Virus record (IMG/VR): IMGVR_UViG_3300044837_000112
Coordinates: 1 to 64,000 of that record
Source: a virus
Reading direction: 5' to 3' (one strand)
DNA: 64,000 nucleotides
A program made the position numbers and the translations under genes. The notes under the pieces were generated by a model, which was given only the letters and a program-made list of their open reading frames with translations, ran no database searches and was not told where the DNA came from. Positions within the stretch are counted from its first letter, which is position 1; each line of letters starts with the position of its first letter. This document shows positions 8,512 through 63,219 of the stretch, one piece after another.

Positions 8512-8700
8512 ATGGAGAAACCAGAGCCGCTGCTGACGCCTGCCGAGGTGGCGTCGATGTTCCGCGTCGACCCCAAGACAGTCACTCGGTGGGCGAAGGC
8601 AGGCAAGCTCAGCGCCATTCGCACGCTCGGCGGTCACCGCCGTTACCGCGAGTCGGAGGTTCGAGAGCTGCTTTATGGGAAGGAGGTACTACCGTCATGA
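8512..8700 (+). CDS. bldC: BldC-family MerR/Xis-like wHTH developmental regulator
   Basis: EPLLTPAEVASMFRVDPKTVTRWAKAGKLSAIRTLGGHRRYRESEVRELL matches Streptomyces BldC (as recalled) almost residue for residue. Confidence 0.92.
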   Translation: MEKPEPLLTPAEVASMFRVDPKTVTRWAKAGKLSAIRTLGGHRRYRESEVRELLYGKEVLPS

Positions 8701-9035
8701 TCTTCGAAATACTTATCGGTGCCTGGCTCGTCGGTGACAAGGTGGTCGATTTCATCCATGACCGCCGCGAGAGCAAGAAAGCACCCGAGCCGATCTGTGG
8801 CTGTGGCCACCACCTGGCTAATCACGATCCTGCGACGGGCATCTGCCATGATATCGATCTCGAGAGTGTCTACTCGTCCAAGAAGGGTGACTACATCGAG
8901 AAGATCCCATGCACCTGTCGTCAGTATGTTGGACCGATGCCGATCGCTCACTTTTGGACGCCAGGGGTGATCGATAGCAGTCGCCATGCTACACCACACG
9001 AGATTACTCCTAAAGACGATATGGGTATGGGTTAG
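8697..9035 (+). CDS. membrane-anchored Cys/His-rich protein
   Basis: AAGGAGG RBS; hydrophobic N-terminus; CGCGHH...H...C...CTC. Confidence 0.6.
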   Translation: MIFEILIGAWLVGDKVVDFIHDRRESKKAPEPICGCGHHLANHDPATGICHDIDLESVYSSKKGDYIEKIPCTCRQYVGPMPIAHFWTPGVIDSSRHATPHEITPKDDMGMG

Positions 9036-9064
9036 CCTAGAGGTAGTCATGAAGCAGATGCTAG

Positions 9065-9093
9065 TTGACACGGCCCATAGTACCCGCTAGGAT
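9065..9093 (+). promoter_or_regulatory. sigma70/HrdB-type promoter, probably leaderless
   Basis: TTGACA-17 nt-TAGGAT, then 6 nt to the ATG at 9100; no SD. Confidence 0.75.
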
Positions 9094-9099
9094 GGCCCC

Positions 9100-9531
9100 A
9101 TGCCCCGCGTAGCCCCCGACATGGCCTGCTTCATCTGCGGGCTGGCGCCGTGCGAATGCGGCAAACCCCCAAAGAAACCTGTGCCAAAAAAAGCCGCACC
9201 GAAGCCAGTGCCCGAACCAGTCGTGGTTGCGGTGCCGGTAGACGAGCGGCCTACGCGTGCCCCGCTTTCGGCTGTACCCGTGATCCAGCATGTGATCCCT
9301 GCGCCACGAGTACAGCCGAAAGCGCGAGGCGAGCTGGTCGACCTGCCAGTGGACAAAGGCCGCCAAGAAGCTGAAGACGATGAACGACGAGCCATCACCG
9401 TGCTGTTCACTTCCGGACTCATCGCCTGGGAGGACATGGTGGAGCACCGAGACAAACTTCTCATGACGCCGCTTGAAGCGTCTGCATTGATTTGGAGGGC
9501 GCGACGTGATCAGCGGAATGTCAGCACTTGA
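9100..9531 (+). CDS. hypothetical protein (N-terminal CxxC..CxC, K/P-rich linker)
   Basis: ATG at the predicted +1 of the promoter. Confidence 0.65.
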   Translation: MPRVAPDMACFICGLAPCECGKPPKKPVPKKAAPKPVPEPVVVAVPVDERPTRAPLSAVPVIQHVIPAPRVQPKARGELVDLPVDKGRQEAEDDERRAITVLFTSGLIAWEDMVEHRDKLLMTPLEASALIWRARRDQRNVST

Positions 9532-10723
9532 GGGTGAGATATCGCGCCTCAAGATGGTCATCCTGTCGCAGCGTAGTCTTCTGGATAGCATGCGTCCAAA
9601 GTTGGATAAGATGTACGTCGAGGGCAAGAAGGAATCTCCCGAGTACAAGGCACTCCTGAAGCGCGCCGATACCGTCGGCATGCAGGTCGCTGGTTTCGCG
9701 CTAATGCTGAAGACTCTTGGCTACCGCATCGACGAGGACGGCGTCATGCGAGTAGTTAGACCTGATCCTCTGGATATCGATCCGGCTGATCGCGAGATGG
9801 AGATGCACCCGGTAGACGATCCCTGGGCAAAAGATCCCCCCGCTTCTGCTTCAATGCGGATCCCGACTGAAATTGAGCATAAGCTGGCCGAGCGGCATCA
9901 CGTGAAAGATCTCAAGGAAAAGAACTACAAGGAGATGGGCGCGGCCTACGAGAAGGAGGACACACTTCTCGGCGATGCCCTGAAGGCTAAGATAGTTGAA
10001 CTAGACAAGAAGCTACTGAAGCTTGATAGGGAGATAGAGCGCCTCGTGGAAAGTCCAGTGAAACTGCCACGCCCAGCACGACCTGTCAGGCCTGGTCGTG
10101 CTGTTCATCGCTTCACGTTCGAAGAACTCATCGGTTACAGCGTGCCAGTGTATGGCGTGAAGTGTGCGTGTACTAAGGGACTCCTGTGTGAAGAATGGAC
10201 TGTGGCGCTTGGCCAGCGTACTTTGATCACGCAGTACTATGCTTGCTTTAATACCAGAAGCAAACCACTGAATGTTATGGTGCCCATCTTTGGTCAGATT
10301 CTAGAAGGGATCAAGGACAGCACGATAAAGTTTCCAGAAGCAGTGGATCGCTATAACGACTACTCTTTCAAGGTTACACCTTGGAGATCGATCGAGATAG
10401 CCACGATGCCGGGTGCGATTCTCTTCCTGCCTGAAGTCACCGACGTGTCGCACCTTCAGATAGTTCAGAACCAGGCACAGTTAATCATCAGTACACTACC
10501 TGCGTCTGTGGAAGCGAAGATTCGTTCAAGGCCAGATAAGTGTATATCATCTAATCACAACTATGGCGACACGGATAAGATGACGCGATTAATCGCGACA
10601 GGTGATCGCGAGAGCAACGCGTACAAGGCGATGCTGTACCTGCGTGCTACGCGGGACACCTGTCTGTTCTGTTATACCAAGGAAGAGCCTGCATTCATGG
10701 GCGAACACATCCCCGTCGTCTGA
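9506..10723 (+). CDS. hypothetical protein with coiled coil and Cys motifs
   Basis: 405-aa ORF; CAC..LLC and CLFC. Confidence 0.6.
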   Translation: MISGMSALEGEISRLKMVILSQRSLLDSMRPKLDKMYVEGKKESPEYKALLKRADTVGMQVAGFALMLKTLGYRIDEDGVMRVVRPDPLDIDPADREMEMHPVDDPWAKDPPASASMRIPTEIEHKLAERHHVKDLKEKNYKEMGAAYEKEDTLLGDALKAKIVELDKKLLKLDREIERLVESPVKLPRPARPVRPGRAVHRFTFEELIGYSVPVYGVKCACTKGLLCEEWTVALGQRTLITQYYACFNTRSKPLNVMVPIFGQILEGIKDSTIKFPEAVDRYNDYSFKVTPWRSIEIATMPGAILFLPEVTDVSHLQIVQNQAQLIISTLPASVEAKIRSRPDKCISSNHNYGDTDKMTRLIATGDRESNAYKAMLYLRATRDTCLFCYTKEEPAFMGEHIPVV

Positions 10724-10752
10724 GATATCCAGAACACCAGGGGAGTAACGAG

Positions 10753-11013
10753 ATGCCCAGCTATACAGACTACAAATGCGGCAAGTGCCACAAGCCGACA
10801 GAGCGTGAACTGCTCATAGTCAAGAGGGCAGTCTTCGTACCGATCGGCCGGGGTGCGAAGATCGTCAAGAACAGGACAATAATGTGGCTGTGTGACGATT
10901 GCCTCAAGTTGGACCCCGACTGGAACCGCGAGAGCCACGATGCACCTGGTCTCAAGTCTGTCACTCGCGAGAACGTCCGCGAGCTACGACGCCAGATGAG
11001 CGAGGATATCTGA
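10753..11013 (+). CDS. Zn-ribbon protein
   Basis: GGGGAG RBS; YKCGKC...LCDDC. Confidence 0.65.
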   Translation: MPSYTDYKCGKCHKPTERELLIVKRAVFVPIGRGAKIVKNRTIMWLCDDCLKLDPDWNRESHDAPGLKSVTRENVRELRRQMSEDI

Positions 11014-11582
11014 TGCCAGTTCGTCGACCTAAGGTAACCGACAGTGTCTTCAGCCGTCTGAACCGACTTCTGTGGGTGCGGACGGAGAATCAGTCCATCA
11101 CTGTCTTTACGCCACCACCAGAGGGCGAGTGGCCCACCTCGTCGGTACTGGTGATGTTCCAGTCGATGAAAAACTCTACGAAGCAGTACACCATAAACCT
11201 GTCGGACATGACCGTGGAAGAGTTAGCAGTGTTCCGACAGGCAATTATCCTGGCACTCGATCTGGCTGAACCCCAGTCGCGTGAAAATGATCGCTTAACG
11301 AAGGATGGGATTCTCGAAGATGGAAACCCTGGACTCAGATTCTATCGACATGCTCCGACGGTGGTGTTTGGAAAGGGGGCGCTCGAACGACACGATCCGA
11401 GCATATACGGGGGACATGCGGAGTTTCTTTCGCGAAACGGGGCTGACATCCCTACCGCTGAAGGACTTCCCGAGCGAAGCAGCAGCGTGGCTGATCTCGA
11501 AGCGGATGACACTGGAACCCAAGACATTGCTCCGTCGCTTGTCATCCGCTCGTCTGATGGGGAAAGTGATGGGGTGTGGTGA
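11013..11582 (+). CDS. hypothetical protein overlapping the recombinase 5' end
   Basis: TGATG coupling and GAGG RBS; last 263 nt overlap 11320-12141 in another frame. Confidence 0.5.
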   Translation: MPVRRPKVTDSVFSRLNRLLWVRTENQSITVFTPPPEGEWPTSSVLVMFQSMKNSTKQYTINLSDMTVEELAVFRQAIILALDLAEPQSRENDRLTKDGILEDGNPGLRFYRHAPTVVFGKGALERHDPSIYGGHAEFLSRNGADIPTAEGLPERSSSVADLEADDTGTQDIAPSLVIRSSDGESDGVW

Positions 11583-12141
11583 TATCCTCCAGGACATCAC
11601 ACTTCCGGTGCCGGCGAAGGCAATCCCACATCCTCTCCCTGGAGGAATTCGAGATCTTCGTGCACTTCTTGGCGTCTGCAAGAGCGATCAACACCGGGCG
11701 CTTGTTGGTTGCCTTGGCTTTGAGGGAATGCGGATGTGCGAAGTACTTACGCTTCGTCCGCGCGACATCGACATGCACGACAAAACGCTGCGCATCTGGG
11801 GTAAAGGCTCCAAGGTTCGTGTCGTCCCGTTCACCAAAAAGGCACAAGAACTGATCCTGCCTGTCTATCTGGACAAGATCTTCATCGATCCCAAGGCTCC
11901 GATGATCGAGTACTCGGATCGACACGCGAGAGCCATCATCACTCAGATGGGCGTAGCTGCCGGAATCTCGCGACCGATCGCATCGCACGATCTTCGTGCC
12001 ACATTCGCTACCCTCGCCTACGCCAAGACGCGGGACGCGAAAGCAGTCCAGAACTGGCTCGGTCACGCGAGCGGGGACACCACGGCTATCTATATCGAAG
12101 TGCCGATGGATACGCTTCGCATCGTCGGCGAGATAGACTAG
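11320..12141 (+). CDS. XerC/XerD-like tyrosine recombinase (no arm-binding domain)
   Basis: core-binding GRSNDTIRAY; catalytic GMRMCE, GKGSKVR, HDLR, LGH..TTAIY. Confidence 0.9.
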   Translation: METLDSDSIDMLRRWCLERGRSNDTIRAYTGDMRSFFRETGLTSLPLKDFPSEAAAWLISKRMTLEPKTLLRRLSSARLMGKVMGCGDILQDITLPVPAKAIPHPLPGGIRDLRALLGVCKSDQHRALVGCLGFEGMRMCEVLTLRPRDIDMHDKTLRIWGKGSKVRVVPFTKKAQELILPVYLDKIFIDPKAPMIEYSDRHARAIITQMGVAAGISRPIASHDLRATFATLAYAKTRDAKAVQNWLGHASGDTTAIYIEVPMDTLRIVGEID

Positions 12142-12149
12142 GAGAAGAT

Positions 12150-12965
12150 ATGACAACTGATGTAAAGGTGCCAAAGGTAAGCACGTACACCACCGGGCTC
12201 TGTCAGGTGGGCGGTCACGAAGGAGCGCCACAGCTCTCGCCGGGAGGTGCGCTACGCAAACCATGCCTGGGCGAGTACGACTTCCAGCGTGGCACCAAGG
12301 TGCGCTGTATGTGCTGGTGTCACGAGATGTTCCGGGAGGTGCGCGCCATGAAGGCGTCCCTGGAGCCGCAGGAGGTGGACGCGGCCGGGAACGCCCTGGT
12401 GCTGGATGACACTGGCTGGGAGACCATAACGCCTGCCACCGTTGTTCAGGAGATCGGCCCGGCGATCGAGGCGGCTACCGGACGGCAGCTGTTGCGGCTG
12501 CCACCAGCGTCGTTCATCTTCCACGACGGGGGACCGGTCGTGGAACTGTGGGCTGGTGGATATGCAATCCTAGAGGAGCTGGCCAGCTCGGAGCACCTCA
12601 CCGACTACCTTGATCTCTTCATGCGCAAGCACGACCTGGTCAAGGGACCGAAGGTCCCGCACAAGCGGTACGCCAGCAACGACACTGAACGGCGAGCGAG
12701 AGGGAGTCTCGATATAAATGTCGAGGCCGTCTGTCGACTCGCCTCGCTTGGCTTCTGCCCGTGGGACGATGCGACACCGACGAATATCTCCCTGATGGTC
12801 GATCCGCTCGACCAGCCATCGGCCGGCGCAGTTCGCGAGGTACTGATCCGCTGGGGCAAGGCCGGCGTCGCCGAGGTAACCGACAAGCCGGTGCTGTTCG
12901 TCAAGTTCATCGGCCTCGCACAGAACCGCTCGATCGCTGGCGCGACAGCTCCTAGGTTCGTATGA
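12150..12965 (+). CDS. hypothetical protein, Cys/His N-terminus and possible C-terminal wHTH
   Basis: AGGAG RBS; C...H...C...CMCWCH. Confidence 0.6.
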   Translation: MTTDVKVPKVSTYTTGLCQVGGHEGAPQLSPGGALRKPCLGEYDFQRGTKVRCMCWCHEMFREVRAMKASLEPQEVDAAGNALVLDDTGWETITPATVVQEIGPAIEAATGRQLLRLPPASFIFHDGGPVVELWAGGYAILEELASSEHLTDYLDLFMRKHDLVKGPKVPHKRYASNDTERRARGSLDINVEAVCRLASLGFCPWDDATPTNISLMVDPLDQPSAGAVREVLIRWGKAGVAEVTDKPVLFVKFIGLAQNRSIAGATAPRFV

Positions 12966-12966
12966 A

Positions 12967-13257
12967 ATGGCATCACTTGACAGCGACGAGGAGCGTGGTA
13001 GGATAGGACTGCCACCGTTACTGTTCCTGTTCACCCTGGAGCAGATCTGTTCGATGATCCAGGTGGACATGACTTCGCTCATGCGGAACCATCTCTGGTA
13101 CACAGGAGTTACGCCTGGGATGCCGATGCGCCGACAGATGCGAGCGGTGAACGTAGGCGAGCACAAGGAGCCGATCTGGCGGGTATCGCAGCGCGACTTC
13201 GTATCGTGGGCGAAGCGACAAGGATTCAAGGTGTCCGACTATGCGAATTACTCTTGA
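12967..13257 (+). CDS. Xis/HTH_17-like DNA-binding protein
   Basis: LFTLEQICSMIQV...WRVSQRDFVSW pattern. Confidence 0.5.
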   Translation: MASLDSDEERGRIGLPPLLFLFTLEQICSMIQVDMTSLMRNHLWYTGVTPGMPMRRQMRAVNVGEHKEPIWRVSQRDFVSWAKRQGFKVSDYANYS

Positions 13258-13894
13258 CAACGTCTACCTTCTAGCGGGCCATAAGCCCATCGACTGGATG
13301 ATGGAGCTGTCAGTCCCGATCGAGGGGGACTATGAGGAGAAGTCGGAAGCTCCTGAGACGTTCACTGAATTTCTCGACAGCTTCGCCAAGGCTGGCTCAG
13401 ACTTCTACACTGCGCTCAAGGCTAGTTTTCCCATAGTTCCTGGCTTCAAGAAGACATTCGAGGACGTAGCCGATGCGGAAATGCGAGCCAGCCTACTGAG
13501 AGCAGAATTCGTCTCACCACACGCACGCATCGAGTGGTCGAGTGAGGCCGGGAGTCCGCTAGATGATATGATTAAGTATGCAGAAAGTCTGAGGGGTGGA
13601 AAGATGGCTCCATGGGGTCCAATTGATGCGACGACCCCTCGCGAGAGTCACGTCCACATCTCTGCTAAAGGATGGGAGGGTGCGAGTCCCAGTCGCGGCG
13701 TCATCGACGAGCCTTACTGGTACGAGTACGCTAAGCGTACCGAAGTCAGAGAACAGAAGGAACGCGATGAAAGTGAGATCGCTGATCAGATAGCCGAAGA
13801 GAACGGTACCAGTATTCTTCGATCGGCGAAGAAGGACATCGCCCTGCCGCCGATAAAGAAGAACTCCGGTCCGCCAAAGAAGAGGATGCGATGA
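13241..13894 (+). CDS. hypothetical protein
   Basis: 217-aa ORF with overlaps at both ends. Confidence 0.55.
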   Translation: MRITLDNVYLLAGHKPIDWMMELSVPIEGDYEEKSEAPETFTEFLDSFAKAGSDFYTALKASFPIVPGFKKTFEDVADAEMRASLLRAEFVSPHARIEWSSEAGSPLDDMIKYAESLRGGKMAPWGPIDATTPRESHVHISAKGWEGASPSRGVIDEPYWYEYAKRTEVREQKERDESEIADQIAEENGTSILRSAKKDIALPPIKKNSGPPKKRMR

Positions 13895-14301
13895 CTATCA
13901 AGTGGGAGAAGGCAGACTACTCGGTCGGCAGTAGTGAATGTATCCAGGTAGGCAGGGATACGTCTGTGCCGGACTGGATACATCCACTCATCTTCATGAA
14001 GACGCAGGGTGGCATGTTCGTCGCCACCAACAGAGAATTCGCCAACTTCGTCGCGCAGTGTGCGCGTGGAGACTGGAACCACCTCATCGAAGGATACGAG
14101 ATGACCACACCAGCCGAGCCGTCTGCAGATCCAGACATCGCCGTCATCGAGGCAATGAAGGGCATCGTCGTCAGCGATGCAGTTGTCACTCGTGCAGCCC
14201 TGATGGGGCTGTCACGTGACGACGTCTATTCGCTGAAGCACAAGGCGATGGAGCTGATCGGCTTCGTCGAGGAGCGCTTCGAAGAGCTGCCGGAAGAGTG
14301 A
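13891..14301 (+). CDS. DUF397 (BldB-family) domain protein with C-terminal extension
   Basis: WEKADYSVGSSECIQV...EFANFVAQCARGDWNHL fits the DUF397 pattern WxKSxYS..CVEV...W..FV....GEFD. Confidence 0.65.
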   Translation: MTIKWEKADYSVGSSECIQVGRDTSVPDWIHPLIFMKTQGGMFVATNREFANFVAQCARGDWNHLIEGYEMTTPAEPSADPDIAVIEAMKGIVVSDAVVTRAALMGLSRDDVYSLKHKAMELIGFVEERFEELPEE

Positions 14302-14540
14302 CACTCTACATGGCGACGGCCACAACGTATATCGGTACTCATCCAGCAGAGAGGCCAGAGGTGGAGGCTGCGCCAGGTGTCGCCGAACTTGACCGTGGCC
14401 CGATCGAAGGCGATGACCTCGATGAACTGTACTGGCGCAACGACCACGGAGTAAACAAGCTTCGCTGTACAAGTACTGATCGTGATCTAGCGCTGGATCT
14501 CGTCGAGACGAAGTACTATCAGATCAAGAATAACCGATAA
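14298..14540 (+). CDS. hypothetical protein
   Basis: GTGA overlap. Confidence 0.45.
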   Translation: MTLYMATATTYIGTHPAERPEVEAAPGVAELDRGPIEGDDLDELYWRNDHGVNKLRCTSTDRDLALDLVETKYYQIKNNR

Positions 14541-14560
14541 CAATTGATAGCCGTTCACGT

Positions 14561-14590
14561 TTGACGTGGGTACCTAGGGCCGACTAGGAT
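14561..14590 (+). promoter_or_regulatory. sigma70/HrdB-type promoter, probably leaderless
   Basis: TTGACG-18 nt-TAGGAT, then 6 nt to the ATG at 14597. Confidence 0.7.
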
Positions 14591-14596
14591 GGACAC

Positions 14597-15067
14597 ATGA
14601 CGAACATGTATCAGTCACTCGCCTACGCCGACCAGTTCGGCGCCGAGAAGACGCACGCAGACGCGCTCAACCTGAACATCGAGATCGCCAACACGGAGAT
14701 CGAGATCGCCGGGGCGGCCAGCCGTCTTCGTCGAAACAGGGCCCTCCTCGTGTGGCGCGAGGAAGAGATCGCCGTGCTGGTTACGGTCGATGCGACCAAG
14801 GTCGACGAGAAGGTGTCGCAGGCAGCGATCGATCGGAAGGTGAAGGCGGCTGTCGCTGTCGACCCGCAGGTACGAGAGTTAAACGAGTTCATCCTTGGCG
14901 TCCAGGAGGAACTCGACCGACACGTGGCCGTCCTATCCGGGCATAAGGTGGCACATAAGACGGCCATCGCGCGAATCGAGAGCCTCGGTGGCTGGTTCCA
15001 TTTCCTTGGAGCCGTCAAGGACGCAAACACCCAGCATGAGGTGGCCGTGGCTGCGACGCCTTTCTAG
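14597..15067 (+). CDS. coiled-coil protein, possibly a UvsY-like recombination mediator
   Basis: all-helical 156 aa upstream of SSB-like gene; the UvsY resemblance is weak. Confidence 0.45.
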   Translation: MTNMYQSLAYADQFGAEKTHADALNLNIEIANTEIEIAGAASRLRRNRALLVWREEEIAVLVTVDATKVDEKVSQAAIDRKVKAAVAVDPQVRELNEFILGVQEELDRHVAVLSGHKVAHKTAIARIESLGGWFHFLGAVKDANTQHEVAVAATPF

Positions 15068-15159
15068 GCCAACCGCTGGCCTTGTGCACGATCCCGTAAC
15101 ATGCAACACTGCAACACACGCAAATCCGGCAAATCTGTAAAACTGAGGGGAACCACAGA

Positions 15160-16140
15160 ATGACGAGTACTGAAATCGAAGCGGCTGGCGCGTACGGCGA
15201 CCTCTACGGTGGCCTGGAAGACTTCACCGTCAGCGATATGAAGCTGGCGCGGGTCACGATCGAGCACGCGGATGGCGTCTTCAAGGACTCGCTGACCGGC
15301 GAGACATTCAAGGAGATCTTCTTCATCCCGCTGGCACTGATCAAGCAGCGAGTGCTGTGGCACCCGACCGTAACGGACGATTCGCAGCCGCTGTGCAAGG
15401 CGACAAACTTCGAACTCGGCTTCCCGACCGTCGGCCAGCCGAAGGACGTCCAGAACTTCCCCTGGGGCGCAGCCAAACTGAACCCCGCTGACTTCCCGGC
15501 CTCGCCAGAGTTCGGACGGCCGGTGGTCCCGTGCTCCTCCTGCGTTCTCAAGGACTGGGGCAGCGACCCGGTCGGCGGCAAGAAGCCGTGGTGCACCGAG
15601 CAGCACTCGATCCCGGTCCTGTACGGCGCGACGTCGGACGACTGCATCAACATGGCAGTCATGACATTCCAGCGGTCGTCGATGCAGGCCTCGAAGGCGT
15701 TCTTCGCCAGCATCATGCGGGCCAGGAAGCCGGCCTTCTCGGTGATCGGCAAGGCGACCTTGCTCGCACAGAAGCGTGGCACGAACACCTTCCACGTCCC
15801 GGTGCTCGCGAAGTTCACGGACACCGAGATGTCGACCTGGGGTGCCTTCTCGGAGCAGGCGAAGACGATCGCCGACTACCTGCGCGAACCGCCGCTGCTC
15901 AAGATGGACGGTGCTCCGGACGTTTCTGGCATCGCGGCGGCAACCACCTGGACGCCGGGTGTCGCTGCTCCCGTTGCTGTAACTCCGACCGTCGTGACGG
16001 CCCCGCCGGGCGCCACGATCGCCGGAGCAGTCGTTACAACGGCCCCCGTGGCCGTCCCCGCGACACCAGCACCGGCGATGATGGCGCCAATCGCGACGCC
16101 TGCTGGCGGTCGCGACGGCAACGACGACCTGCCTTTCTAG
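15160..16140 (+). CDS. phage single-stranded DNA-binding-like protein
   Basis: Cys cluster (C..CSSC..C), A/P/T linker, acidic SSB-type tail NDDLPF. Confidence 0.65.
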   Translation: MTSTEIEAAGAYGDLYGGLEDFTVSDMKLARVTIEHADGVFKDSLTGETFKEIFFIPLALIKQRVLWHPTVTDDSQPLCKATNFELGFPTVGQPKDVQNFPWGAAKLNPADFPASPEFGRPVVPCSSCVLKDWGSDPVGGKKPWCTEQHSIPVLYGATSDDCINMAVMTFQRSSMQASKAFFASIMRARKPAFSVIGKATLLAQKRGTNTFHVPVLAKFTDTEMSTWGAFSEQAKTIADYLREPPLLKMDGAPDVSGIAAATTWTPGVAAPVAVTPTVVTAPPGATIAGAVVTTAPVAVPATPAPAMMAPIATPAGGRDGNDDLPF

Positions 16141-16152
16141 GCAGCCGATACT

Positions 16153-16190
16153 GGGCGACCCGACCCTATCTCTAGGGGGCCGGGTCGCCC
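16153..16190 (+). terminator. hairpin terminator after SSB-like gene
   Basis: GGGCGACCCG...CGGGTCGCCC. Confidence 0.65.
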
Positions 16191-16208
16191 TCTCTAAGGA
16201 GACAAATC

Positions 16209-16763
16209 ATGTCCGATGAGGACAACGAGCTGCCAGAGCCGCCACCGGGCTTCCGGTTCATCACGCCCGAGATACAGGCGGAGATGCAGCAGCGTGCGAT
16301 GGCACAGGCCACCGAAATGGGTTTATCGGTACACAGCCTGTTCGAGAGTCTGAAGCCGGAGCAGATGCATACGCTGATGCGTATGTTCAACATCTGCGTC
16401 GGCAACAAGAAGCTGATGCTGCCAACCTATTGGGCTGGACAACTGCACGCGGTACTCCGCTACAAGCACGGCATCTGTTCCTGCTGCGGCAACCCACTGC
16501 ACGACGAGCTGGATATCTCCAAGTTCGTCGGCAGCGAAGAGGCTGCGACCGAGGAAGTTGCAAAGGTGGAGGGTCCGGAGATCGAGGAGTCGTCGGTGGA
16601 GCAGATGCTGCGATACAACGTCTCCTCCATCCAGCCGGGTGATCCGTCCGTGGAGTGCAACAAGTGCAGCACGTACTTCCCTAGCCTGGAAGCTCGGATG
16701 GAATCGGGGCTCAAGTGCCCGGTCTGCCTCTTGGGGGAGCGCTTTGGGAAAGCTGACTCCTAG
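16209..16763 (+). CDS. Zn-finger hypothetical protein
   Basis: AAGGAG RBS; CSCC..H, CNKC, CPVC. Confidence 0.6.
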   Translation: MSDEDNELPEPPPGFRFITPEIQAEMQQRAMAQATEMGLSVHSLFESLKPEQMHTLMRMFNICVGNKKLMLPTYWAGQLHAVLRYKHGICSCCGNPLHDELDISKFVGSEEAATEEVAKVEGPEIEESSVEQMLRYNVSSIQPGDPSVECNKCSTYFPSLEARMESGLKCPVCLLGERFGKADS

Positions 16764-21640: not shown

Positions 21641-21641
21641 G

Positions 21642-51508: not shown

Positions 51509-51531
51509 GGGGCATACATTACGGCACGCCC

Positions 51532-53570: not shown

Positions 53571-53576
53571 CAGTAC

Positions 53577-55472: not shown

Positions 55473-55474
55473 GA

Positions 55475-56956
55475 CTAAAACACCCTGGTGGCGGGAACCT
55501 CTAGCACGACTGATCCCTCAATCTCCTTGCGTGTCGGAGGTGTCGGAGCCGCAGTCGCCGCATGGACCATCCGCTCGCCTACCGCAAGACCACCCAGGGT
55601 GCCACCAGCACCGAGTCCCTTCAGCATCCCCTTGATCATGTCGCCATCGATCTCGTTACGAGGGATGCCAGCCTCCTCCAGCGCGCGGACTGCTGCGGCA
55701 ACCAGCTCCTTGGGGTTTTGGCTGCTAACTATGCCTGCCGAGACGCCGACCCCGACGTTGACGTTGACGTTCGCCGCGCCCGACAGCTTCGGGTCCACCA
55801 GCTTGGCGAGTTTGACGCCATCAGCGAACAGTCCACCCATCTGCTTAGTAACCTCAGGATCAAGCTGGTCACTCTCGGACTCCTTCTCCATCGCGGTCTC
55901 GAGCCGCTCTGCCCGCATCCTGGTCAGCTCGGCGAGTCCCTCGACGATCCGACCCGCGTCGCGGTGCTGGAAGAACTTGGCAAGATCGGCCATCTCGGAC
56001 TCCTTTAGGCCGCAGATCTGACCGGCACGAAAGACTCTACAACCAGGAGCGATGCTACACTGGTCACAAAGTACCTTCTCGGCGGCGGCGGTGGTGTACT
56101 GTTTGCGCTGAATGACGATACTCTGGCCCTGATGCGGTAGCCCAGTCGCAGCGATGCGCTCCATAGCTCTGGTGGCGCCACGACCCGCGTACCTGAAGTT
56201 CGAGTTGTAGTGCTGCTGCGCCCACAGGATCGAGCGGATACGCAGCAGATAGCGAGCCTGCTGACCCAGCGAGCCTCCATCGAGAAAGTCTTTGACGGTG
56301 ATGCCGAACAGCTCGATCCAGTGACGCCAGTCATTTATATCGCGGTAGAAGTTACTCGAGTCCATATCAAGCGTCCGGCCCGGCGCCAGCCGAATCTTCC
56401 GGTTCTGGTCACCCAGATCCTCTAGGCCGACATCGACGCTGGCCAGATCATACGCGAACATGTACGCGAAGCTGATGAGGCCATTGACGTGCAGAGTCAC
56501 TCCTGGATTGTCGAGCTGCAGTTTGCCAACTCTTGCCAGCATGCTAGACGGCATGCCACCGAAGTTATAGAGCACAACCTTGTGCTCCTGGCCAAATACT
56601 GACCGCATCGTCCGGTCTATCGTCTCGTCCGCACATAGCCGGGCGTTATCACCAGCTGGGTTGGCGATCAGGAACTCCAGATCTTCCCAATCATCTGTTT
56701 TGGGAGACCAGGTGGGATACACAGCACTCGGCTCACCGAAGCAATCCTCGGGCCGGTACAACTGCGCGCCTTGCTTGCCCAAGATCATGATCTGCGGGTG
56801 GATCTGTGAGCTGGCGTAAATCTGCCGGATTAGGTTCAAGCCGTTGTGCTTCTGGCGACCCAATTCTGTCTGTGAAAAGACGATCCGCGAGATACCTTCA
56901 TCGCGGAATAGGGAGACATTAACGCGAGGGTTCCGAAACCACACCTCAGTCATCAT
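55475..56956 (-). CDS. TGT/DpdA-like degenerate barrel plus Cys-cluster/helical domain; occupies the terminase small subunit position
   Basis: LHVNGL.SF..M..Y...SVD; CDQC....C...C followed by amphipathic helices. Confidence 0.5.
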   Translation of the reverse strand: MMTEVWFRNPRVNVSLFRDEGISRIVFSQTELGRQKHNGLNLIRQIYASSQIHPQIMILGKQGAQLYRPEDCFGEPSAVYPTWSPKTDDWEDLEFLIANPAGDNARLCADETIDRTMRSVFGQEHKVVLYNFGGMPSSMLARVGKLQLDNPGVTLHVNGLISFAYMFAYDLASVDVGLEDLGDQNRKIRLAPGRTLDMDSSNFYRDINDWRHWIELFGITVKDFLDGGSLGQQARYLLRIRSILWAQQHYNSNFRYAGRGATRAMERIAATGLPHQGQSIVIQRKQYTTAAAEKVLCDQCSIAPGCRVFRAGQICGLKESEMADLAKFFQHRDAGRIVEGLAELTRMRAERLETAMEKESESDQLDPEVTKQMGGLFADGVKLAKLVDPKLSGAANVNVNVGVGVSAGIVSSQNPKELVAAAVRALEEAGIPRNEIDGDMIKGMLKGLGAGGTLGGLAVGERMVHAATAAPTPPTRKEIEGSVVLEVPATRVF

Positions 56957-57060
56957 GTCCCTTCCCTCGCCCTCTCGGAGCATTAGTAGATATCTGTACA
57001 CCATACAACCAGGACGCCCACGCGCGGGAGCAATGTAACGGTAGGGAATGTTGGATACAG

Positions 57061-57097
57061 TTCGGGCCAGCCCCCCGTGGAAGAAGGCTGGCCCGAA
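57061..57097. terminator. 12-bp stem hairpin in the late-operon leader
   Basis: TTCGGGCCAGCC / GGCTGGCCCGAA. Confidence 0.6.
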
Positions 57098-57118
57098 ACT
57101 ACTCTGTGTTAAGTCCTA

Positions 57119-57153
57119 CCCGTCACTCTCGCCCAACAGCCCGTCACTCTCGC
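57119..57153. repeat. 14-bp direct repeat CCCGTCACTCTCGC x2 (21-nt period)
   Basis: 57119-57132 and 57140-57153. Confidence 0.8.
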
Positions 57154-57226
57154 AACAGGGGGCCTCCGGGGGAGTCTCACAGATACTTGATTGTTTATCC
57201 TGGAAGATGATCGCTCAAGTAAGGTC

Positions 57227-57255
57227 ACTATACCATGACCCGTAAACCGTGTCAA
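57227..57255 (-). promoter_or_regulatory. consensus-like leftward promoter facing the virion operon
   Basis: TTGACA-17 nt-TATAGT with TGn extension on the - strand. Confidence 0.78.
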
Positions 57256-57423
57256 ATCATCTTAACAATCGCCGGTAATAAAGGTGAATAATGGACACAT
57301 GGGACGCCGCTAGACCGGCCACCACGTGCCGTGATACGGTCACGGGACCGCGATAGGCGGAAGTTCCAGCTAGGTTACCGGCGGAACTAGAGCAAACATC
57401 CTGGAAGATGAATCGGAGATGCC

Positions 57424-58329
57424 ATGAGCGTCCAAGAATACACTGACGATATGCTGAAGGATGTTGCCAAACTACTGGCGAAGCACTTCATTGCCAGGTC
57501 TGACGTGATGGCCCAGCAGCACCCCGACGGAGGCTACTCGCCTACCCGCGGGCCCCGTAACCCTGACGGTACACCTGGTGACCTGGCTGGCTTCTCCATG
57601 CCGGCCCTGATGAACCACCTCAAGGGTACGGCGACCCTGGGCCACTATCTGCTGAACAAAGATAACCAGTGCAAGCTGTTCGCCTTTGATATTGATATCG
57701 ACGGCATCAAGTCGGGTACGCCGAAAGAGGATTGGTGTCTGCTTCCAACCTCGTACATCGACGGCGAGTATCGCGAGTACTTCCACATCGATGGGAGGCT
57801 CGCCTGGAAGACTGATATGGCGGGATTCCAGCTAGACGGCGGGCCTACCTATACTCGGGATATGCAAATAGTGAGCCGCGACTTCCTGCGGTACCAGTTG
57901 CGCCGAGTGGCCGACGAACTGATGATCGCGATCCGAGAGAACTTGGAAATCCCGACCGTCTTCGCGTACACCGGCAACAAGGGTCTGCACGTGTACGGGT
58001 TTACTGGCCTGATGGACGCCAAAGATGTGCGTGAAGGGGCCGAAATCTGTGCGGAAGCCGCTAGAATGCGCCCGCATAAGGGGTCTAACTTCTGGAAACC
58101 GACCGATAACTTCGCTGAACCCTGCGCCCTAACGGTTGAGATCTTCCCCAAGCAGACGACCATCGGCGAGGACGGCTTCGGGAATCTGCTCCGTCTGCCC
58201 CTCGGAAAGAACCTGAAGAACCCGGAACACCCCACTTTCTTCTGTTCTGACGTGCCAGGTGGCGAAAGATCCTCTATCACCCCGGTCGATACTCTGCAGC
58301 TGTTTGAAACAGTCTTCCGAGGTCTGTAA
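57424..58329 (+). CDS. archaeo-eukaryotic primase (AEP/PrimPol) domain protein
   Basis: FAFDIDID, YTGNKGLHVY, EIFPKQ, GNLLRLPLG. Confidence 0.85.
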   Translation: MSVQEYTDDMLKDVAKLLAKHFIARSDVMAQQHPDGGYSPTRGPRNPDGTPGDLAGFSMPALMNHLKGTATLGHYLLNKDNQCKLFAFDIDIDGIKSGTPKEDWCLLPTSYIDGEYREYFHIDGRLAWKTDMAGFQLDGGPTYTRDMQIVSRDFLRYQLRRVADELMIAIRENLEIPTVFAYTGNKGLHVYGFTGLMDAKDVREGAEICAEAARMRPHKGSNFWKPTDNFAEPCALTVEIFPKQTTIGEDGFGNLLRLPLGKNLKNPEHPTFFCSDVPGGERSSITPVDTLQLFETVFRGL

Positions 58330-58449
58330 TCCAGTGTACCAAAATACCAGGGATTACTGTCTCGAAGTGCATAAAAAGCCCCATAAAAGGCGGGAAAACG
58401 CCGTGAAAGTGCCTAAAACTGAGCGGACGGCAACGGGGGGCAGAAGTAT

Positions 58450-60390
58450 ATGACAGATGTGAGTACGGCGGGGACTGTAGCGGTAGGTACTACAGTCCCC
58501 GCACCGCGATCTGGCAAGTTTGCGGAGGCTCTTGCAGCCCGCCGGGCGGCGAAGGCGGCAGAGTCTGGGGTAGAGAAGTCGCTACTAGAGGCAGTAGAAG
58601 ACTTCATCCCGGACATACCACCAGACCCGCTCACGGAGTATCAGTCGAAGGTGAACGCAGCCATCGAGGAGATCACCTTCCAGGAGGTCTTCGAGTTGAT
58701 GGTCTCGATGGGGATCATCTCCAGGTCGGCTAAGCCGATCAGCTCCTGGGTCGGCGACTCCAACAAGTTCTTCTGTCCGGACCCGTCCCACGACAACTCC
58801 GGCGGCACCATGAGTGCCTGGGGTTCCCGCGAGAAGGGGAAGTGGACCTGCTCCAAAGGCTGCGGCGATGGGGCAGGTGGTGGCGACAAGTTGTCGCTGG
58901 CTAAATATCTGTTCGGCGAAGAGTTCCACGACAGATGCAACAAATTAGCTGGCGCCCTGCGTGGTGTTAAGAAGCCTGAATTTTTGGTTGGTGGCCTCCC
59001 GCCGGAGTCACCAGTCGCCCTGGTGACACCTTCGACTTCAGTAGCTTCAGCTGAAGTAGCTGAAGTCGGTCCAGCCGGACCAGGGGAAACTACAGATCCG
59101 TTGCTACTGCGTTTCGATGGGAATGCAGTCCTTGCCTTCTCGTCAGTGAAGGATTCGTTCCTTCACAAATACGTTGCCGCAATGGCGCTCAGCTCATCCC
59201 CGGAAGAATTTAATCTGCCACTAGCCATGCTCGTGATTGCACTGGTCAGTGGCCGCCGCGTACAGTTGGACGACGAGTACCCCGTGATCCCGACGATGGG
59301 CATTGTCCTTGTTGGCACCTCGGGTGATGGAAAGACGAACAGCATAAAGCCAGCCAAGAAGCTAATGAGAACTGTTGATCCAGCCGGTCCCGAGAGGTTC
59401 GGCATCAACATCGACAAGAACGTAATCTCCGGACAGGAACTCGTCCACACCTTCCGGAAGGTTGAAAAGGATCTCGAAACCGGCGCCGTAACGGAGTACC
59501 CGATCCGGGCGCTACTCGAGTACCCAGAGTTCTCCGGCTTCTTTGGCAGTACGAAGATGACTGGGTCTTCACTCAAGACGTTCCTACACGAGATGCTCGA
59601 TGGGGACGAATACCTCGGCTACGGGAGCCGCTCCGCTGGAGGCAAGGTGATTGCCCGGAACGCTTTCGGATGCGTCATCTCGACAGTACAGACGGATATG
59701 CTGTCTTCCCTGTTTACGCGGGAAGACGCCGCGTCCGGCTTCATGAACCGCTTCATTATGATCAGCGGAACAGAGAAGGAGCAGGTTGGAATCAATCGAG
59801 CTGTCATCGACAGCGATGGGTATACCGCTGCCCTGCGAGAGGTGAAGTCCTTCTGCCACGGCACGGGGCGATCGAAGCCAATCCTCTGGAACCCTGACGC
59901 AGAAGCTCTGTATAACAAGATCTATAAAGAATATCTCAAACCGATCAAGGACGCTGACCGGCGTGCGCTACTAAAGCGTATCGACCTATACTTCAAAAAG
60001 TTCTGTCTCATCTTTGCAATCAACGAGCGTTCTGAGTATGTGCTGCCACACCATGTACAGATGGCCAGACAGATGACCACGTACATCGTGCCGACAAGTC
60101 AGACCATCTCCGAGAACGTCTTCGTCGCGGACGCGAACGACATGGACGAGTGGCTCGTCCGTCGGATCGGGGCGCTGGAGCTGCTGTCCAGAGAGAAGGA
60201 ACCGACCAAGGAGCACCACGGCCCAACCGTCGCCGCACTCGGACGCGAGTTTAAGAAGAAGAAATGGACCATTGAATCCGTCAACAAGGCACTCAAGGGT
60301 CTCGAGATCGCCGGCATCATCAAGGGGATCGACGGCGGCGGCAAGCGTGGCCAGCGAACTAAGTACTACTATCTTATCGAGCCAGACTAA
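58450..60390 (+). CDS. replication protein: Zn finger + DUF3987-like AAA+ helicase + C-terminal wHTH
   Basis: CPDPSH..WTCSKGC; GTSGDGKT; SGFMNRF; GKRGQRTKYY wing. Confidence 0.75.
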   Translation: MTDVSTAGTVAVGTTVPAPRSGKFAEALAARRAAKAAESGVEKSLLEAVEDFIPDIPPDPLTEYQSKVNAAIEEITFQEVFELMVSMGIISRSAKPISSWVGDSNKFFCPDPSHDNSGGTMSAWGSREKGKWTCSKGCGDGAGGGDKLSLAKYLFGEEFHDRCNKLAGALRGVKKPEFLVGGLPPESPVALVTPSTSVASAEVAEVGPAGPGETTDPLLLRFDGNAVLAFSSVKDSFLHKYVAAMALSSSPEEFNLPLAMLVIALVSGRRVQLDDEYPVIPTMGIVLVGTSGDGKTNSIKPAKKLMRTVDPAGPERFGINIDKNVISGQELVHTFRKVEKDLETGAVTEYPIRALLEYPEFSGFFGSTKMTGSSLKTFLHEMLDGDEYLGYGSRSAGGKVIARNAFGCVISTVQTDMLSSLFTREDAASGFMNRFIMISGTEKEQVGINRAVIDSDGYTAALREVKSFCHGTGRSKPILWNPDAEALYNKIYKEYLKPIKDADRRALLKRIDLYFKKFCLIFAINERSEYVLPHHVQMARQMTTYIVPTSQTISENVFVADANDMDEWLVRRIGALELLSREKEPTKEHHGPTVAALGREFKKKKWTIESVNKALKGLEIAGIIKGIDGGGKRGQRTKYYYLIEPD

Positions 60391-60404
60391 GCAGGGAGAA
60401 TGAC

Positions 60405-60746
60405 ATGCCCAAGAAGATCAGAACTGAACTGATCGAGGACGAAGAGAACGACATCAACGAGTTCGACATGCTGCACAAGGCGGCGGACGTGGCGACGGAT
60501 CTCTTCTTGAAGCAAGGCTGGCACATCCCGCACGGGGCCTACAAGGGTCCTCGGGTTCACCAGGAGCTGCTCCACGAGATCATCTTCGCGGCGTTGACCG
60601 AGACGTACCTCGCAGCCGTCAACTCGCCCGGCTGGGGACCGTTCCAGTGTCGAGGCACTGACAAGCGCCTGGCAATTCTGAAATGCCTAGAGCTGGACGG
60701 CCGGATTTCCTTCGAGACGATTTGCTACCTCGGCCCTGGGCGGTAG
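60405..60746 (+). CDS. hypothetical protein
   Basis: GGGAG RBS. Confidence 0.5.
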   Translation: MPKKIRTELIEDEENDINEFDMLHKAADVATDLFLKQGWHIPHGAYKGPRVHQELLHEIIFAALTETYLAAVNSPGWGPFQCRGTDKRLAILKCLELDGRISFETICYLGPGR

Positions 60747-60758
60747 ATCAACTAGCGG

Positions 60759-61223
60759 TAATGCGGAGCAAAATAATGCGGAGCACGAATCTTTTTCGTG
60801 CTCCGCATTACTCTCTGTCACGGGCAATAATGCGGAGTAAATCGGCTCCTACTTATTTACTACGAATTACTTTGGCTAGTTGATCTATAAATCGGTTATT
60901 CGGAGCGGCTCCCCAAAACATAAAGGAGCACGTTTGACCTGCGGTTATGCATAGAGGAGTGCGTAAAATGCGGAGCCGTACCGTCTATACCCGTAGGGCC
61001 ATACAGGTATCAAGAAACATCAAGTACTAAATTTCTCCCCTACGGTTACCGTGTGTAGTCATCCGAGTCCTTATACGAAGACTTTGATCACGGTATACGC
61101 CTAGCTCCTAATTCCCCTAATTCTCCTCATTGCGTTTTCGCAGGTCAAACGCCATATGATCATGCTCATACTACTACTACTACTAACTCCTACTTACTTA
61201 TATATATATATATTATAGATAAT
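60759..61223. other. putative replication origin: AATGCGGAG iterons, inverted repeats, AT-rich unwinding tract
   Basis: TAATGCGGAG at 60759, 60774, 60801(-), 60828; variants at 60896 and 60966; IR 60931-60943/61139-61151; (CTA)n/(TA)n at 61171-61223; downstream of primase/helicase. Confidence 0.6.
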
Positions 61224-61418
61224 GAACCATCTGAAGACCCTAAGATGGGGGGTGTAGGCGAGGGTCTATACAACTGGCTATATCTTTCTAGATGATCATG
61301 CTTTCAGAAAAACTTGGTGTGTGTTGCGCGAGGCAAGAGAGGCCCGATTTCGTGCCCGGTTTGTCATTTTTTGTCCGGTATGCCCCGATAATTTGTCCGT
61401 TTTGCCCCGATTCTAATG

Positions 61419-61620
61419 TGGACAAGTCCACATCGGACTGTCCGTTTTGCACCGATCTGTACCATTGGTCAGTCCGATATGGCACAGATGCCCGAGTCCA
61501 CATTGGACAGGTCTACATCGGACTGTCCGTTATACCCCGATCTGTACCATTGGCCAGTCCGATATGCACGAGATGACCCTGTTCCACATTGGACAGGTCT
61601 ACATCGGACTGTCCGTTATG
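61419..61620. repeat. 85-86-bp tandem repeat, about 2.4 copies
   Basis: units start with TGGACA at 61419, 61504 and 61590. Confidence 0.85.
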
Positions 61621-61630
61621 TCGTGATATC

Positions 61631-61658
61631 ATCACCGATAGTGTGCACTATCGGTGAT
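61631..61658. repeat. 13-bp-arm palindrome
   Basis: ATCACCGATAGTG-TG-CACTATCGGTGAT. Confidence 0.85.
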
Positions 61659-61730
61659 CTAGACCATCAGATGGTCCAAAGGTATGACCATTAGCATGAC
61701 CAGCCATCGTACAGGTGTGCTATGCGAGAC

Positions 61731-61744
61731 GTTTCACGTGAAAC
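61731..61744. promoter_or_regulatory. parS: chromosome-type parS site
   Basis: perfect GTTTCACGTGAAAC inside a 20-bp palindrome (61728-61747). Confidence 0.88.
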
Positions 61745-61865
61745 GTCAAAGATCATCTTCGTGTGGTCGCGTAGGGCTAGTTGATCTTGGTCTAGTCTTG
61801 GCGCGAGACTAGTTCACATCCACCATACCGTCTGGTGGTAAGACCTTTCCAACGGACCATCTGCA

Positions 61866-61906
61866 TGACTGTCTAATGGTCCTACCATTAGACCATTAGA
61901 CAGTCA
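61866..61906. repeat. 16-bp inverted repeat
   Basis: TGACTGTCTAATGGTC / GACCATTAGACAGTCA. Confidence 0.85.
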
Positions 61907-61962
61907 GACCATTGGCACAGCGGCCAGTCAAACCAGTAGTACGTGACACAAACTAAAAAGAA

Positions 61963-62275
61963 AGTTAACAGTCCGGTAAACAACCTTTACAATTGCCATC
62001 CAAGCAACTGTAAAGAAACCTAACCCAATGGTAAACAACCTTTACAGTTGCCCATACCCAACCATCCTAGGAAGCTAGGAGGCTAGGATGCCCACCACCA
62101 GCACTGTTAAGACTCTTTACAGTAACGCAAACCTTCTTTACAATTGCATCAGCAACTATCATCGCGGCAAACATCTAACTGTTAACAAACCTTCTTCAAT
62201 AGCAAACCTTGTTAACAGTCATCCATGATCACTGTTAACAAACCTTACCGTACAGCCAACCTTCCTAACAGTCGT
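61963..62275. repeat. A/C-skewed block of GTAAA/AAACCTT/TTTACA/TGTTAACA repeats
   Basis: GGTAAACAACCTTTACA(A/G)TTGCC at 61975 and 62030; ACTGTTAACAAACCTT at 62178 and 62231. Confidence 0.8.
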
Positions 62276-62888
62276 ACCACACCCACAACCTAGCCCATCT
62301 GTCAACCAGAAACGCCGGGCAATCCACCGAACGGTCTGACATCCAGCCCTAGCGGTTGGGTAGCCGAGCCGTTCGGTCATTCCGCTAGTTGATCTACGCC
62401 CGGCCGTCCGACGTCATCCGCCAATGGCCCATCTAGACCCCCTAGCGTCGCCACCGACGGGCGTTCTAGCGCCTGGTTATAACCACACCGACCTAGGCGA
62501 TTTCTCGCGGCACGATCGATCCTAGCGCGTTTCCGCTGGTCAACCGATGTGATCATTTGTCCGTATCGGTCCGCGTAGCGCCTACGGTGATCCAGTAGGC
62601 CACCGAATGTGGCCGAAAAACCCTTGACAATCACCCATCTGGCCGATACCTCATCGCCCGTAGGCGAGCTGTCCTAGCTTCCTAGGATGCGTCGCATCCC
62701 CCAAAGATCTAGGGCACCTGGGCATCCTAGGACACTAGGAAGGTGACCCGGCTGGGCATCCTAGGACACTAGGACGCTGGCCGAAAGGTTGATCCTCCGA
62801 ACGGTTGGCCAGGGCTGACCAGAAGTCTTTTTTGTCTAGCCGTTCGACAGCCGTTCTAGCGTGCATATGCGTGTCCTAGGCACTAGGA
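62063..62888. repeat. TCCTAGG-N2-3-CTAGGA motif family, five copies
   Basis: 18-bp IR 62063-62080/62672-62689; 23-bp DR 62718-62740/62752-62774; variant 62874-62888. Confidence 0.8.
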
Positions 62889-63205
62889 TTGGCGTAGCGC
62901 CAAAGACGGAACGAAAAACGGTACGGGGTAGGGGACGGGCCAGGGGCCAGGCGCAACCTAGCGCATGCGGGCCCCGGGCTAGTTGTTCGTTGACATCTGA
63001 ATGTGCCTGGTTACTAATGGGCACCACTCTGACCAACCATGGCGCTAGCTAGCGCCCGTTGCGTGATCTCGTAGACCTATGTGTCCGGGATATCCGACAT
63101 GCCTCAGCCATGGTTTAGCCCGTAGACGGGCTGGTCACCTGACGATGACTTTGGTTACGTCCTTATGACGGGCCGTTTTGATCCTCGTACGTTTCATGGT
63201 TTCTG

Positions 63206-63219
63206 GTTTCACGTGAAAC
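63206..63219. promoter_or_regulatory. parS: second chromosome-type parS site
   Basis: perfect GTTTCACGTGAAAC(A). Confidence 0.88.

Follow-up and report, generated by a model that had tools for sequence, protein, structure and literature searches.

Six host-type parS sites clustered in the genome of an uncultivated actinobacterial siphovirus without recognisable ParA or ParB

INTRODUCTION

To our knowledge, viral use of a host centromere has been documented in detail only for the phi29-family phages of Bacillus. Phage phi29 has five parS sites of the host type, which serve its Spo0J-dependent segregation into the prespore (PMC2731898), and it also carries Spo0A boxes, sites for a host master regulator that silences the lytic cycle. 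Among actinophages, the extrachromosomal Cluster A mycobacteriophages (RedRock and others) maintain unintegrated DNA by parABS cassettes (PMC7157519). Regulators of the WhiB type are common among actinophages (PMC8612146), and gp36 of phage D29 is a structurally BldC-like, MerR-like protein that regulates phage genes (PMC12266134).

Here we describe IMGVR_UViG_3300044837_000112, an uncultivated siphovirus of actinobacteria (78,971 bp in full; CheckV completeness 99%), most of which lies in the window, the 64,000-nucleotide stretch that was analysed. A sequence-only reading of the window had proposed that the phage combines mimics of developmental regulators, a recombinase, and host parS sites into a kit for hijacking host development and chromosome segregation. 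Like phi29 and Nf, it has several copies of a host chromosomal parS and encodes neither ParA nor ParB, but it is a 79-kb siphovirus of Actinomycetota rather than a 19-kb protein-primed podovirus of a Bacillota host, and its sites form one tight array adjoining the replication and early region. With the Cluster A phages it shares centromere-like sites in an actinophage genome; in contrast to these phages, which encode both ParA and ParB and whose parS are arrays of 8-bp direct repeats unlike the chromosomal palindrome, it has the host site and neither protein.

RESULTS

The record holds six exact copies of parS, GTTTCACGTGAAAC, all inside 4.5 kb (61.7-66.3 kb), in a part of the genome that adjoins the primase and helicase genes, a non-coding region, and early genes (Table 1). 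Two perfect sites had been noted from the window, and both are indeed exact, while the count for the whole record is six. Each of the six agrees with the host consensus at 14/14 positions, three also match the full 16-mer palindromic consensus tGTTTCACGTGAAACa, and degenerate copies (one or two mismatches) are absent from the whole 79-kb record. From base composition, ~2e-4 exact copies would be expected by chance in 79 kb, and by our own arithmetic the chance of six sites landing within 4.5 kb is ~4e-6. Past the parS core, the palindromic symmetry continues for no more than 2-3 nt. The three intragenic sites are each translated as VSRET, and their position within unrelated ORFs argues for selection on the DNA itself and not on a promoter.

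Table 1. Features of the phage genome discussed in the text
Feature	Coordinates	Strand	Remarks
BldC-family regulator, 62 aa	8512..8700	+	HTH_17/MerR in Pfam; NCBIfam HTH_BldC
Short Xer-like tyrosine recombinase, 278 aa	11305..12141	+	Pfam Phage_integrase
Weak DUF397-like N-terminal domain plus 80-aa tail	13891..14301	+	Pfam DUF397, 17.7 bits (cut-off 24)
WhiB-like (Wbl) protein, 75 aa	25752..25979	+	Pfam Whib, 35.2 bits (cut-off 23.6)
DNA primase	57424..58329	+	phrog_5362, E=2e-58
Replicative helicase/primase-type protein	58450..60390	+	phrog_5311, E=9e-68
Non-coding repeat-rich region	60747..63246	.	2.5 kb; 85-bp tandem repeat, promoter-like blocks
parS 1	61731..61744	.	Exact; intergenic, within the non-coding region; L005 counterpart at 5548
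parS 2	63206..63219	.	Exact; intergenic, 41 nt upstream of ATG of first early gene (63247); L005 counterpart at 4360
Early small-gene region	63247..64000 in window, continuing to ~66637	+	Holds parS 3-6 past window end
parS 3	64200-64213		Intergenic, 48 nt upstream of likely start 64248; past window end
parS 4	64831-64844		Inside ORF 64729-65403; exact in L005 at 2881, flanks 68-77% identical
parS 5	65685-65698		Inside ORF 65547-65819; past window end
parS 6	66238-66251		Inside DUF6011 gene 66016-66570; past window end

The earlier statement that parA and parB are missing is borne out: ParB_N and HTH_ParB gave no match at E<=1, and the ParA-type ATPase profiles AAA_31 and CbiA gave none, in the whole 79-kb record, so that a phage ParB does not appear outside the window either. 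A self-contained ParABS partition cassette was rejected on these grounds, and no repressor gene was found in the record. Since the genome carries six host-type parS sites without ParA or ParB, the phage probably borrows host ParB. Because most early genes belong to no recognisable family, a very divergent phage-encoded parS-binding protein is conceivable.

Actinomycetes whose BldC is nearest to that of the phage have the same motif in clusters on their chromosomes. Four Micromonosporaceae genomes (Micromonospora, Actinoplanes, Salinispora, and Phytohabitans), taken as plausible hosts that may not include the true one, have 3-9 exact copies each within 3-6 kb, and the phage array thus equals a whole host centromere. 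Copy number and spacing of this 14-mer are similar in chromosomal cluster and phage array, whereas the latter lies on a virus, adjoins replication functions, and has no link to parAB or to a DnaA-box cluster.

The non-coding region, which has no credible ORF and blocks of which are conserved with L005, the close relative described below, may be a replication origin or a region of early control. An oriC mimic with a DnaA-box cluster was rejected, as just one DnaA box is present, and an Rfam search gave no family for this region, its sole results being three tRNAs outside it. In the early region, cassettes are each bracketed by inverted repeats of 29-44 nt, and the start at 64248 is favoured because of a shared ribosome-binding motif, AAAGGCGG. 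Apart from DUF6011, the early small genes gave no Pfam or PHROG function, and no HTH protein family was found adjoining the array. An excess of sigma-70-like promoters was also considered for this region and rejected, the count not being above that of shuffled controls.

The sole close relative found is L005, a 16.9-kb contig with 73% amino acid identity in the packaging protein (55475-57004); a longer contig of it, of 35.9 kb, is on record (P0006). L005 retains exact copies of three of the six parS sites at corresponding places, while their flanks have diverged, so the array is partly conserved in one close relative. Searches of IMG/VR and JGI metagenomes with the packaging protein, primase, portal, and two-sequence alignments gave no close relative beyond this contig, and nucleotide searches of the phage collection with positions 8-28 kb and 60.4-64 kb gave no match. 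Prophage relatives were absent from 185k species genomes queried with the packaging protein, and a high-GC3 gene (67678-68961) tried as a host marker was not found in 301 Actinomycetes genomes.

The broad group to which the phage belongs includes Gordonia Cluster CS and DF phages and the Rhodococcus phages ReqiDocB7 and Perlina. Among 50 primase-related records, three carry exact parS (about 0.01 expected by our own estimate), including the cultured phages Woes and MrWormie (Cluster CS3, Woesvirus), and ParB_N was absent from every parS-bearing record of this set that was tested. Distant relatives of our phage by primase and packaging protein, Woes and MrWormie likewise have exact host-type parS in an early small-gene region without ParB_N, but they have two sites and no BldC where our phage has six sites and BldC. 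Their pair of sites flanks one variable gene, and gene and sites are missing from the sister phages Charianelly and Lahirium. In Woes, each site forms the centre of a longer palindrome of ~32-36 bp in the intergenic DNA between small genes, which might reflect a function as RNA or terminator; the palindromes in our phage are shorter. A scan of part of IMG/VR brought up small phi29-like records as well, of low G+C and in two cases with inverted terminal repeats, that have 3-4 parS and no ParB, and its other multi-parS viral contigs were unrelated to our phage and without WhiB.

All five components named in the sequence-only reading exist in the genome, that of the DUF397 type by a weak match. 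The BldC is a true one, as had been claimed: it scores 107.7 bits against NF033787 HTH_BldC (cut-off 77) and is ~87% identical to S. coelicolor BldC (PDB 6AMA) and 91-96% identical to BldC of Micromonosporaceae and other actinomycetes, with the closest cellular copies in mycelial, sporulating families. It is a single-domain MerR-like protein (HTH at residues 7-54) without a coiled coil or effector domain, and passing the curated BldC model at 87-96% identity to cellular copies sets it apart from proteins of the D29 gp36 type. Similar copies occur in at least 69 IMG/VR stretches, and we conclude that it is a host-derived regulator present in many other phages. The WhiB is canonical, with cysteines at 6, 38, 41, and 47, a GIWGG motif at 59, and a Pfam score above the cut-off.

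The protein that had been called an orphan DUF397 protein is an orphan in that no WhiJ-like XRE partner was found beside it (neither neighbour, 13241-13894 or 14298-14540, has a PHROG match, and the former lacks a Pfam match too), while its family match lies below the cut-off. The DUF397 assignment is weak but plausible: a W-x-K-A...C-[VI]-[EQ]-V-G pattern is visible, and a library-wide search returns a genuine DUF397 protein (P0132) at E=6e-4. A protein atlas search gave no DUF397 cluster, and the predicted model was poor. The N-terminal start is backed by GC3 and a Shine-Dalgarno sequence, and an alternative gene call starts at M36.

For the recombinase, the arm-less architecture proposed earlier was confirmed and the catalytic residues are present, but the protein does not score as an equivalog of XerC or XerD. 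Alignment of the two-domain protein to the XerC model covers positions 9-283 of 295, and R143, H228, R231, H254, and Y263 fall in the conserved recombinase motifs (R..H-x-x-R..H..Y). XerA, XerC, and XerD models align across its full length with scores far under their cut-offs (101 and 89 bits for XerC and XerD; cut-offs 335 and 330). Its nearest relatives are phage recombinases of 31-37% identity, and ReqiDocB7, Perlina, Jumbo, and GordTnk2 encode homologues. An ORF that starts upstream (11013-11582) runs into its N terminus in another frame; the portion 11013-11303 was tried as an integrase arm-binding domain and rejected, having neither a Pfam nor a phage match.

DISCUSSION

The array may best be read as an actinophage counterpart of the way phi29 uses host ParB. 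The six sites would load host ParB clamps onto phage DNA, and the phage genome would then behave like a host centromere; the probable benefit would be that unintegrated DNA is retained and segregated with the host chromosome into daughter cells, hyphal compartments, or spores, in an infection that is delayed or of the carrier type, as with phi29. We place this reading just on the probable side. The sites are non-random, clustered, partly conserved, and identical to the host motif, and the phage has no ParA or ParB; together with the phi29 precedent, this supports the earlier proposal that host ParB is borrowed, while ParB binding at these sites and its consequence are what we infer from them. 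Inheritance is perhaps not the benefit, because the parS-bearing cultured relatives are regarded as lytic and their host, Gordonia, is non-sporulating.

Finding the same trick in actinophages would suggest a convergent, general strategy, with an array as large as the host's that is partly conserved in the sole close relative and recurs in distant ones. It would also matter for ParB/SMC biology and for understanding the persistence of non-integrating phages in mycelial or slow-growing actinobacteria, and actinobacterial vectors may gain from it compact stabilising elements that need no ParAB. The idea is directly testable by comparing parS-positive Woes and MrWormie with the naturally parS-negative Charianelly and Lahirium on Gordonia terrae 3612.

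Alternatively, the phage parS might act during lytic growth, soaking up ParB and through it SMC, which might disrupt host chromosome segregation and division or help to organise and resolve replicating phage DNA, with no role in inheritance. The array at least equals the number of exact sites on the host chromosome, so many phage copies would out-compete the host sites; moreover, the sites adjoin replication genes, no repressor or partition gene was found, and the cultured parS-bearing relatives belong to Cluster CS, which is without temperate features (PMC5559632). What a phage would gain from perturbing segregation within one lytic cycle is not obvious, however, and the sole documented precedent, phi29, uses parS for segregation. 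The sequence level does not separate this explanation from centromere use, and we consider it unlikely.

As the array overlies early genes, it could also serve as a developmental switch. In this more elaborate scheme, which strikes us as less likely again, the phage group would repeatedly gain exact host parS and use ParB-CTP and SMC without ParAB of its own, and in the six-site array a rise of ParB at sporulation or septation would silence early genes and segregate the dormant genome into spores or daughter compartments.

The sequence-only reading went further and joined BldC, DUF397, WhiB, recombinase, and parS into one kit that would keep a sporulating host vegetative, maintain the unintegrated phage, resolve multimers, and load spores. 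The five items do share a genome, the BldC is nearest to copies from mycelial, sporulating families, and in Streptomyces chromosomes are segregated into spores by ParB. A single co-adapted kit tied to sporulation nevertheless fails the co-occurrence checks. WhiB and the short recombinase occur in ReqiDocB7, Perlina, and Jumbo, phages of the non-sporulating Rhodococcus and Gordonia that all are without parS and BldC; a parS array is missing from all 50 further viral records with BldC, of which 25 are at least 90% complete; and parS itself is found in Gordonia phages. The genes are, furthermore, scattered across ~40 kb rather than forming one module, and a BldC that delays sporulation would oppose entrapment in spores. 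WhiB and the recombinase belong to the gene backbone of the phage group, these two together with BldC and the DUF397-like protein look like separate modules and seemingly unrelated passengers, and the tie of the array to sporulation is unproven. We therefore regard the integrated kit as distinctly improbable.

That the palindrome is a phage operator or an RNA hairpin or terminator, its parS identity being incidental or secondary, appears very unlikely. Three sites do lie 41-48 nt ahead of early genes or within non-coding DNA, long inverted repeats abound in the early region, and the Woes sites are centred in long palindromes between small genes. However, the copies match the host consensus without variants, three are within ORFs, the palindromes here barely exceed parS, and no HTH protein family lies next to the array.

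An explanation by chance, or by host DNA captured from near the origin and left as a passive remnant, has nothing but the motif identity in its favour and is effectively refuted by exact copies without variants, far above the number expected, that are spread over five phage genes and spacers without host homologues and are conserved at three positions in the diverged relative L005.

A host-type parS array without ParAB

The full virus record carries six exact copies of the host-type parS site, where about 2e-4 would be expected from base composition, and no copies with one or two mismatches. The sequence-only reading had counted two such sites; both are exact, but the count was too low. Three of the six are intergenic; of these, one stands 41 nt and another 48 nt upstream of the start codon of an early gene, both genes having a AAAGGCGG ribosome-binding motif. 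The other three fall within unrelated ORFs, where each translates as VSRET. In the close relative, a 16.9-kb contig, three exact sites occupy positions matching 61731, 63206 and 64831, with diverged flanks. Since four Micromonosporaceae chromosomes, picked for their closest BldC, carry only 3-9 exact sites each, all within 3-6 kb, the phage array equals a whole host centromere in number and spacing. The absence of parA and parB noted earlier extends to the whole record, which encodes no ParB_N, HTH_ParB, AAA_31 or CbiA domain.

The best reading of the array is a cluster of putative loading sites for host ParB, as in the strategy of the Bacillus phage phi29, which is the precedent for use of host ParB (PMC2731898). 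In contrast, known actinophage partition systems combine their own ParAB with 8-bp direct repeats (PMC7157519), whereas the present array consists of host-type parS sites with no ParAB, and our literature search turned up no actinophage described as carrying a host-type parS array. Several candidate benefits look alike at the level of sequence: the phage DNA may be inherited or retained, ParB titrated off the host chromosome, SMC recruited, or early genes silenced.

parS sites in other viruses

Two cultured Gordonia phages carry exact host-type parS sites, Woes (NC_030905.1) at 71020 and 71441 and MrWormie (ON970596.1) at 69511 and 69932; both belong to Cluster CS3, and neither encodes ParB_N. 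In each, the pair flanks one small gene and every site is central in a palindrome of about 32-36 bp, while the sister phages Charianelly and Lahirium are without both that gene and the sites. Gordonia is not known to sporulate, so a sporulating host is not needed for parS carriage. Cluster CS phages have been described as having no temperate features (PMC5559632).

Six low-G+C IMG/VR records of 8-18 kb (L014, L026, L037, L073, L102 and L113) have three or four exact parS sites each and no ParB_N; two have inverted terminal repeats, and the six are likely phi29-like phages. Two mid-G+C (51-54%) viral fragments, L039 and L097, hold five exact sites within 0.8-0.9 kb; neither fragment encodes ParB_N or WhiB, and neither is related to the phage studied here.

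Co-occurrence of the five items

BldC, the DUF397-like protein, WhiB, the recombinase and parS are all present, and had been proposed to form a single co-adapted, sporulation-linked kit. This proposal is not supported, because the items do not travel together in other phages. ReqiDocB7, Perlina and Jumbo, phages of Rhodococcus and Gordonia, have the recombinase and WhiB, and have no parS (up to one mismatch) and no BldC. At least 69 IMG/VR stretches (L211-L279) hold homologues of BldC with 47-90% identity to the phage copy, and phage-borne BldC is thus common in uncultivated actinophages. The search covered the full length of 50 of the parent records (25 at least 90% complete, 12 with direct terminal repeats, several of 100-166 kb); a lone parS site was present in three of them and an array in none. 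No parS site occurs in 46 of 50 primase-related records. Of the other four, G078 carries two exact sites and G117 one; a 73,752-bp record has two exact sites, positioned as in Woes, and the last has a single one-mismatch copy.

Regulator genes and recombinase

With 107.7 bits, the phage BldC clears the NCBIfam HTH_BldC cut-off (77 bits) and is a true family member. Its identity to Streptomyces coelicolor BldC (PDB 6AMA) is about 87%, and that to copies from Micromonosporaceae, Nocardioidaceae MAGs and Stackebrandtia is 91-96%, a closeness to mycelial families that hints at a mycelial host. WhiB is likewise borne out by its four cysteines and GIWGG motif. The DUF397 match is below threshold, and the assignment has some support despite this score from a reciprocal match to a genuine DUF397 protein and a visible motif.

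The recombinase, described as XerC/D-like, aligns end to end with Xer models and retains the conserved recombinase-motif residues, but scores far below the XerC and XerD cut-offs. Another ORF overlaps its first ~92 codons in a different frame; by GC3, coding passes into the frame of the recombinase near position 11305, and only the 5' part of the upstream ORF is supported as coding. In the annotations of ReqiDocB7 (gp060/gp059) and Perlina, too, the stretch matching the recombinase N-terminus is covered by an upstream ORF.

Genome organization and relatives

The whole record is 78,971 bp, 99% complete by CheckV, with about 57% G+C and no terminal repeats found. The gene map is of siphovirus type.

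Features of the phage record (positions above 64000 lie past the window)
Feature	Position	Strand	Remarks
CobS-like ATPase, CobT-like vWA protein, BldC, recombinase, DUF397-like protein	from window start onward		
Helicase, polymerase exonuclease subunit, sliding clamp, RusA, methyltransferase, WhiB, PD-(D/E)XK nuclease	continuation of the row above		
CobS-like AAA ATPase and CobT-like vWA protein	1219-6102		phrog_5424; phrog_5298 (981 aa)
ORF overlapping recombinase N-terminus	11013-11582		
Structural/packaging block	27-57 kb	minus	packaging protein, terminase large subunit, Mu-like portal, protease, major capsid, tail tube, tape measure (1465 aa), minor tail proteins
Packaging protein	55475-57004	minus	matches PHROG families annotated as small terminase subunit
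Primase	57424-58329	plus	
Helicase	58450-60390	plus	
Non-coding, repeat-rich region	60747-63246		2.5 kb, 3' of primase/helicase
85-bp tandem repeat (2.3 copies, 89% match) and 22-bp repeat	61370-61619		in non-coding region; candidate iterons
DnaA box	61417		single exact copy in non-coding region
TTAACA/TTTACA-17-TACAAT promoter-like blocks, repeated	61960-62275		oriented toward early genes; count not above shuffled controls
Early region	after non-coding region		~9 kb; small genes without assigned function, tRNAs
parS 1-6	61731, 63206, 64200, 64831, 65685, 66238		
Five adjoining early-gene cassettes	63150-66637		
427-aa gene	67678-68961		
tRNA-Met, tRNA-Gln, third tRNA-like gene	70391-72065		third with odd anticodon loop

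A nucleotide search of the phage collection with parts of the genome gave no match. The one close relative found, the 16.9-kb fragment, is syntenic across 50 to 68 kb at 73-92% amino-acid identity. Distant protein-level kinship connects the phage to phages of about 72-85 kb from Gordonia (Clusters CS and DF) and Rhodococcus (ReqiDocB7 and Perlina), through the packaging protein at 55475-57004, the primase, the CobT-to-recombinase gene order and WhiB. The CobT-like gene is also annotated in ReqiDocB7 and Perlina, and an ATPase gene in Woes.

The 427-aa gene has no match among the 301 Actinomycetes genomes searched, and its GC3 of 0.87, against the 0.65-0.75 usual for this genome, suggests that it was acquired recently from a source of high G+C. 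Each of the five early-gene cassettes is enclosed by its own inverted repeat of 29-44 nt (86-97% complementary), which may form long-range RNA stems or mark recombination borders; parS 2 and parS 3 lie 23 and 8 nt inside the left arms of such repeats.
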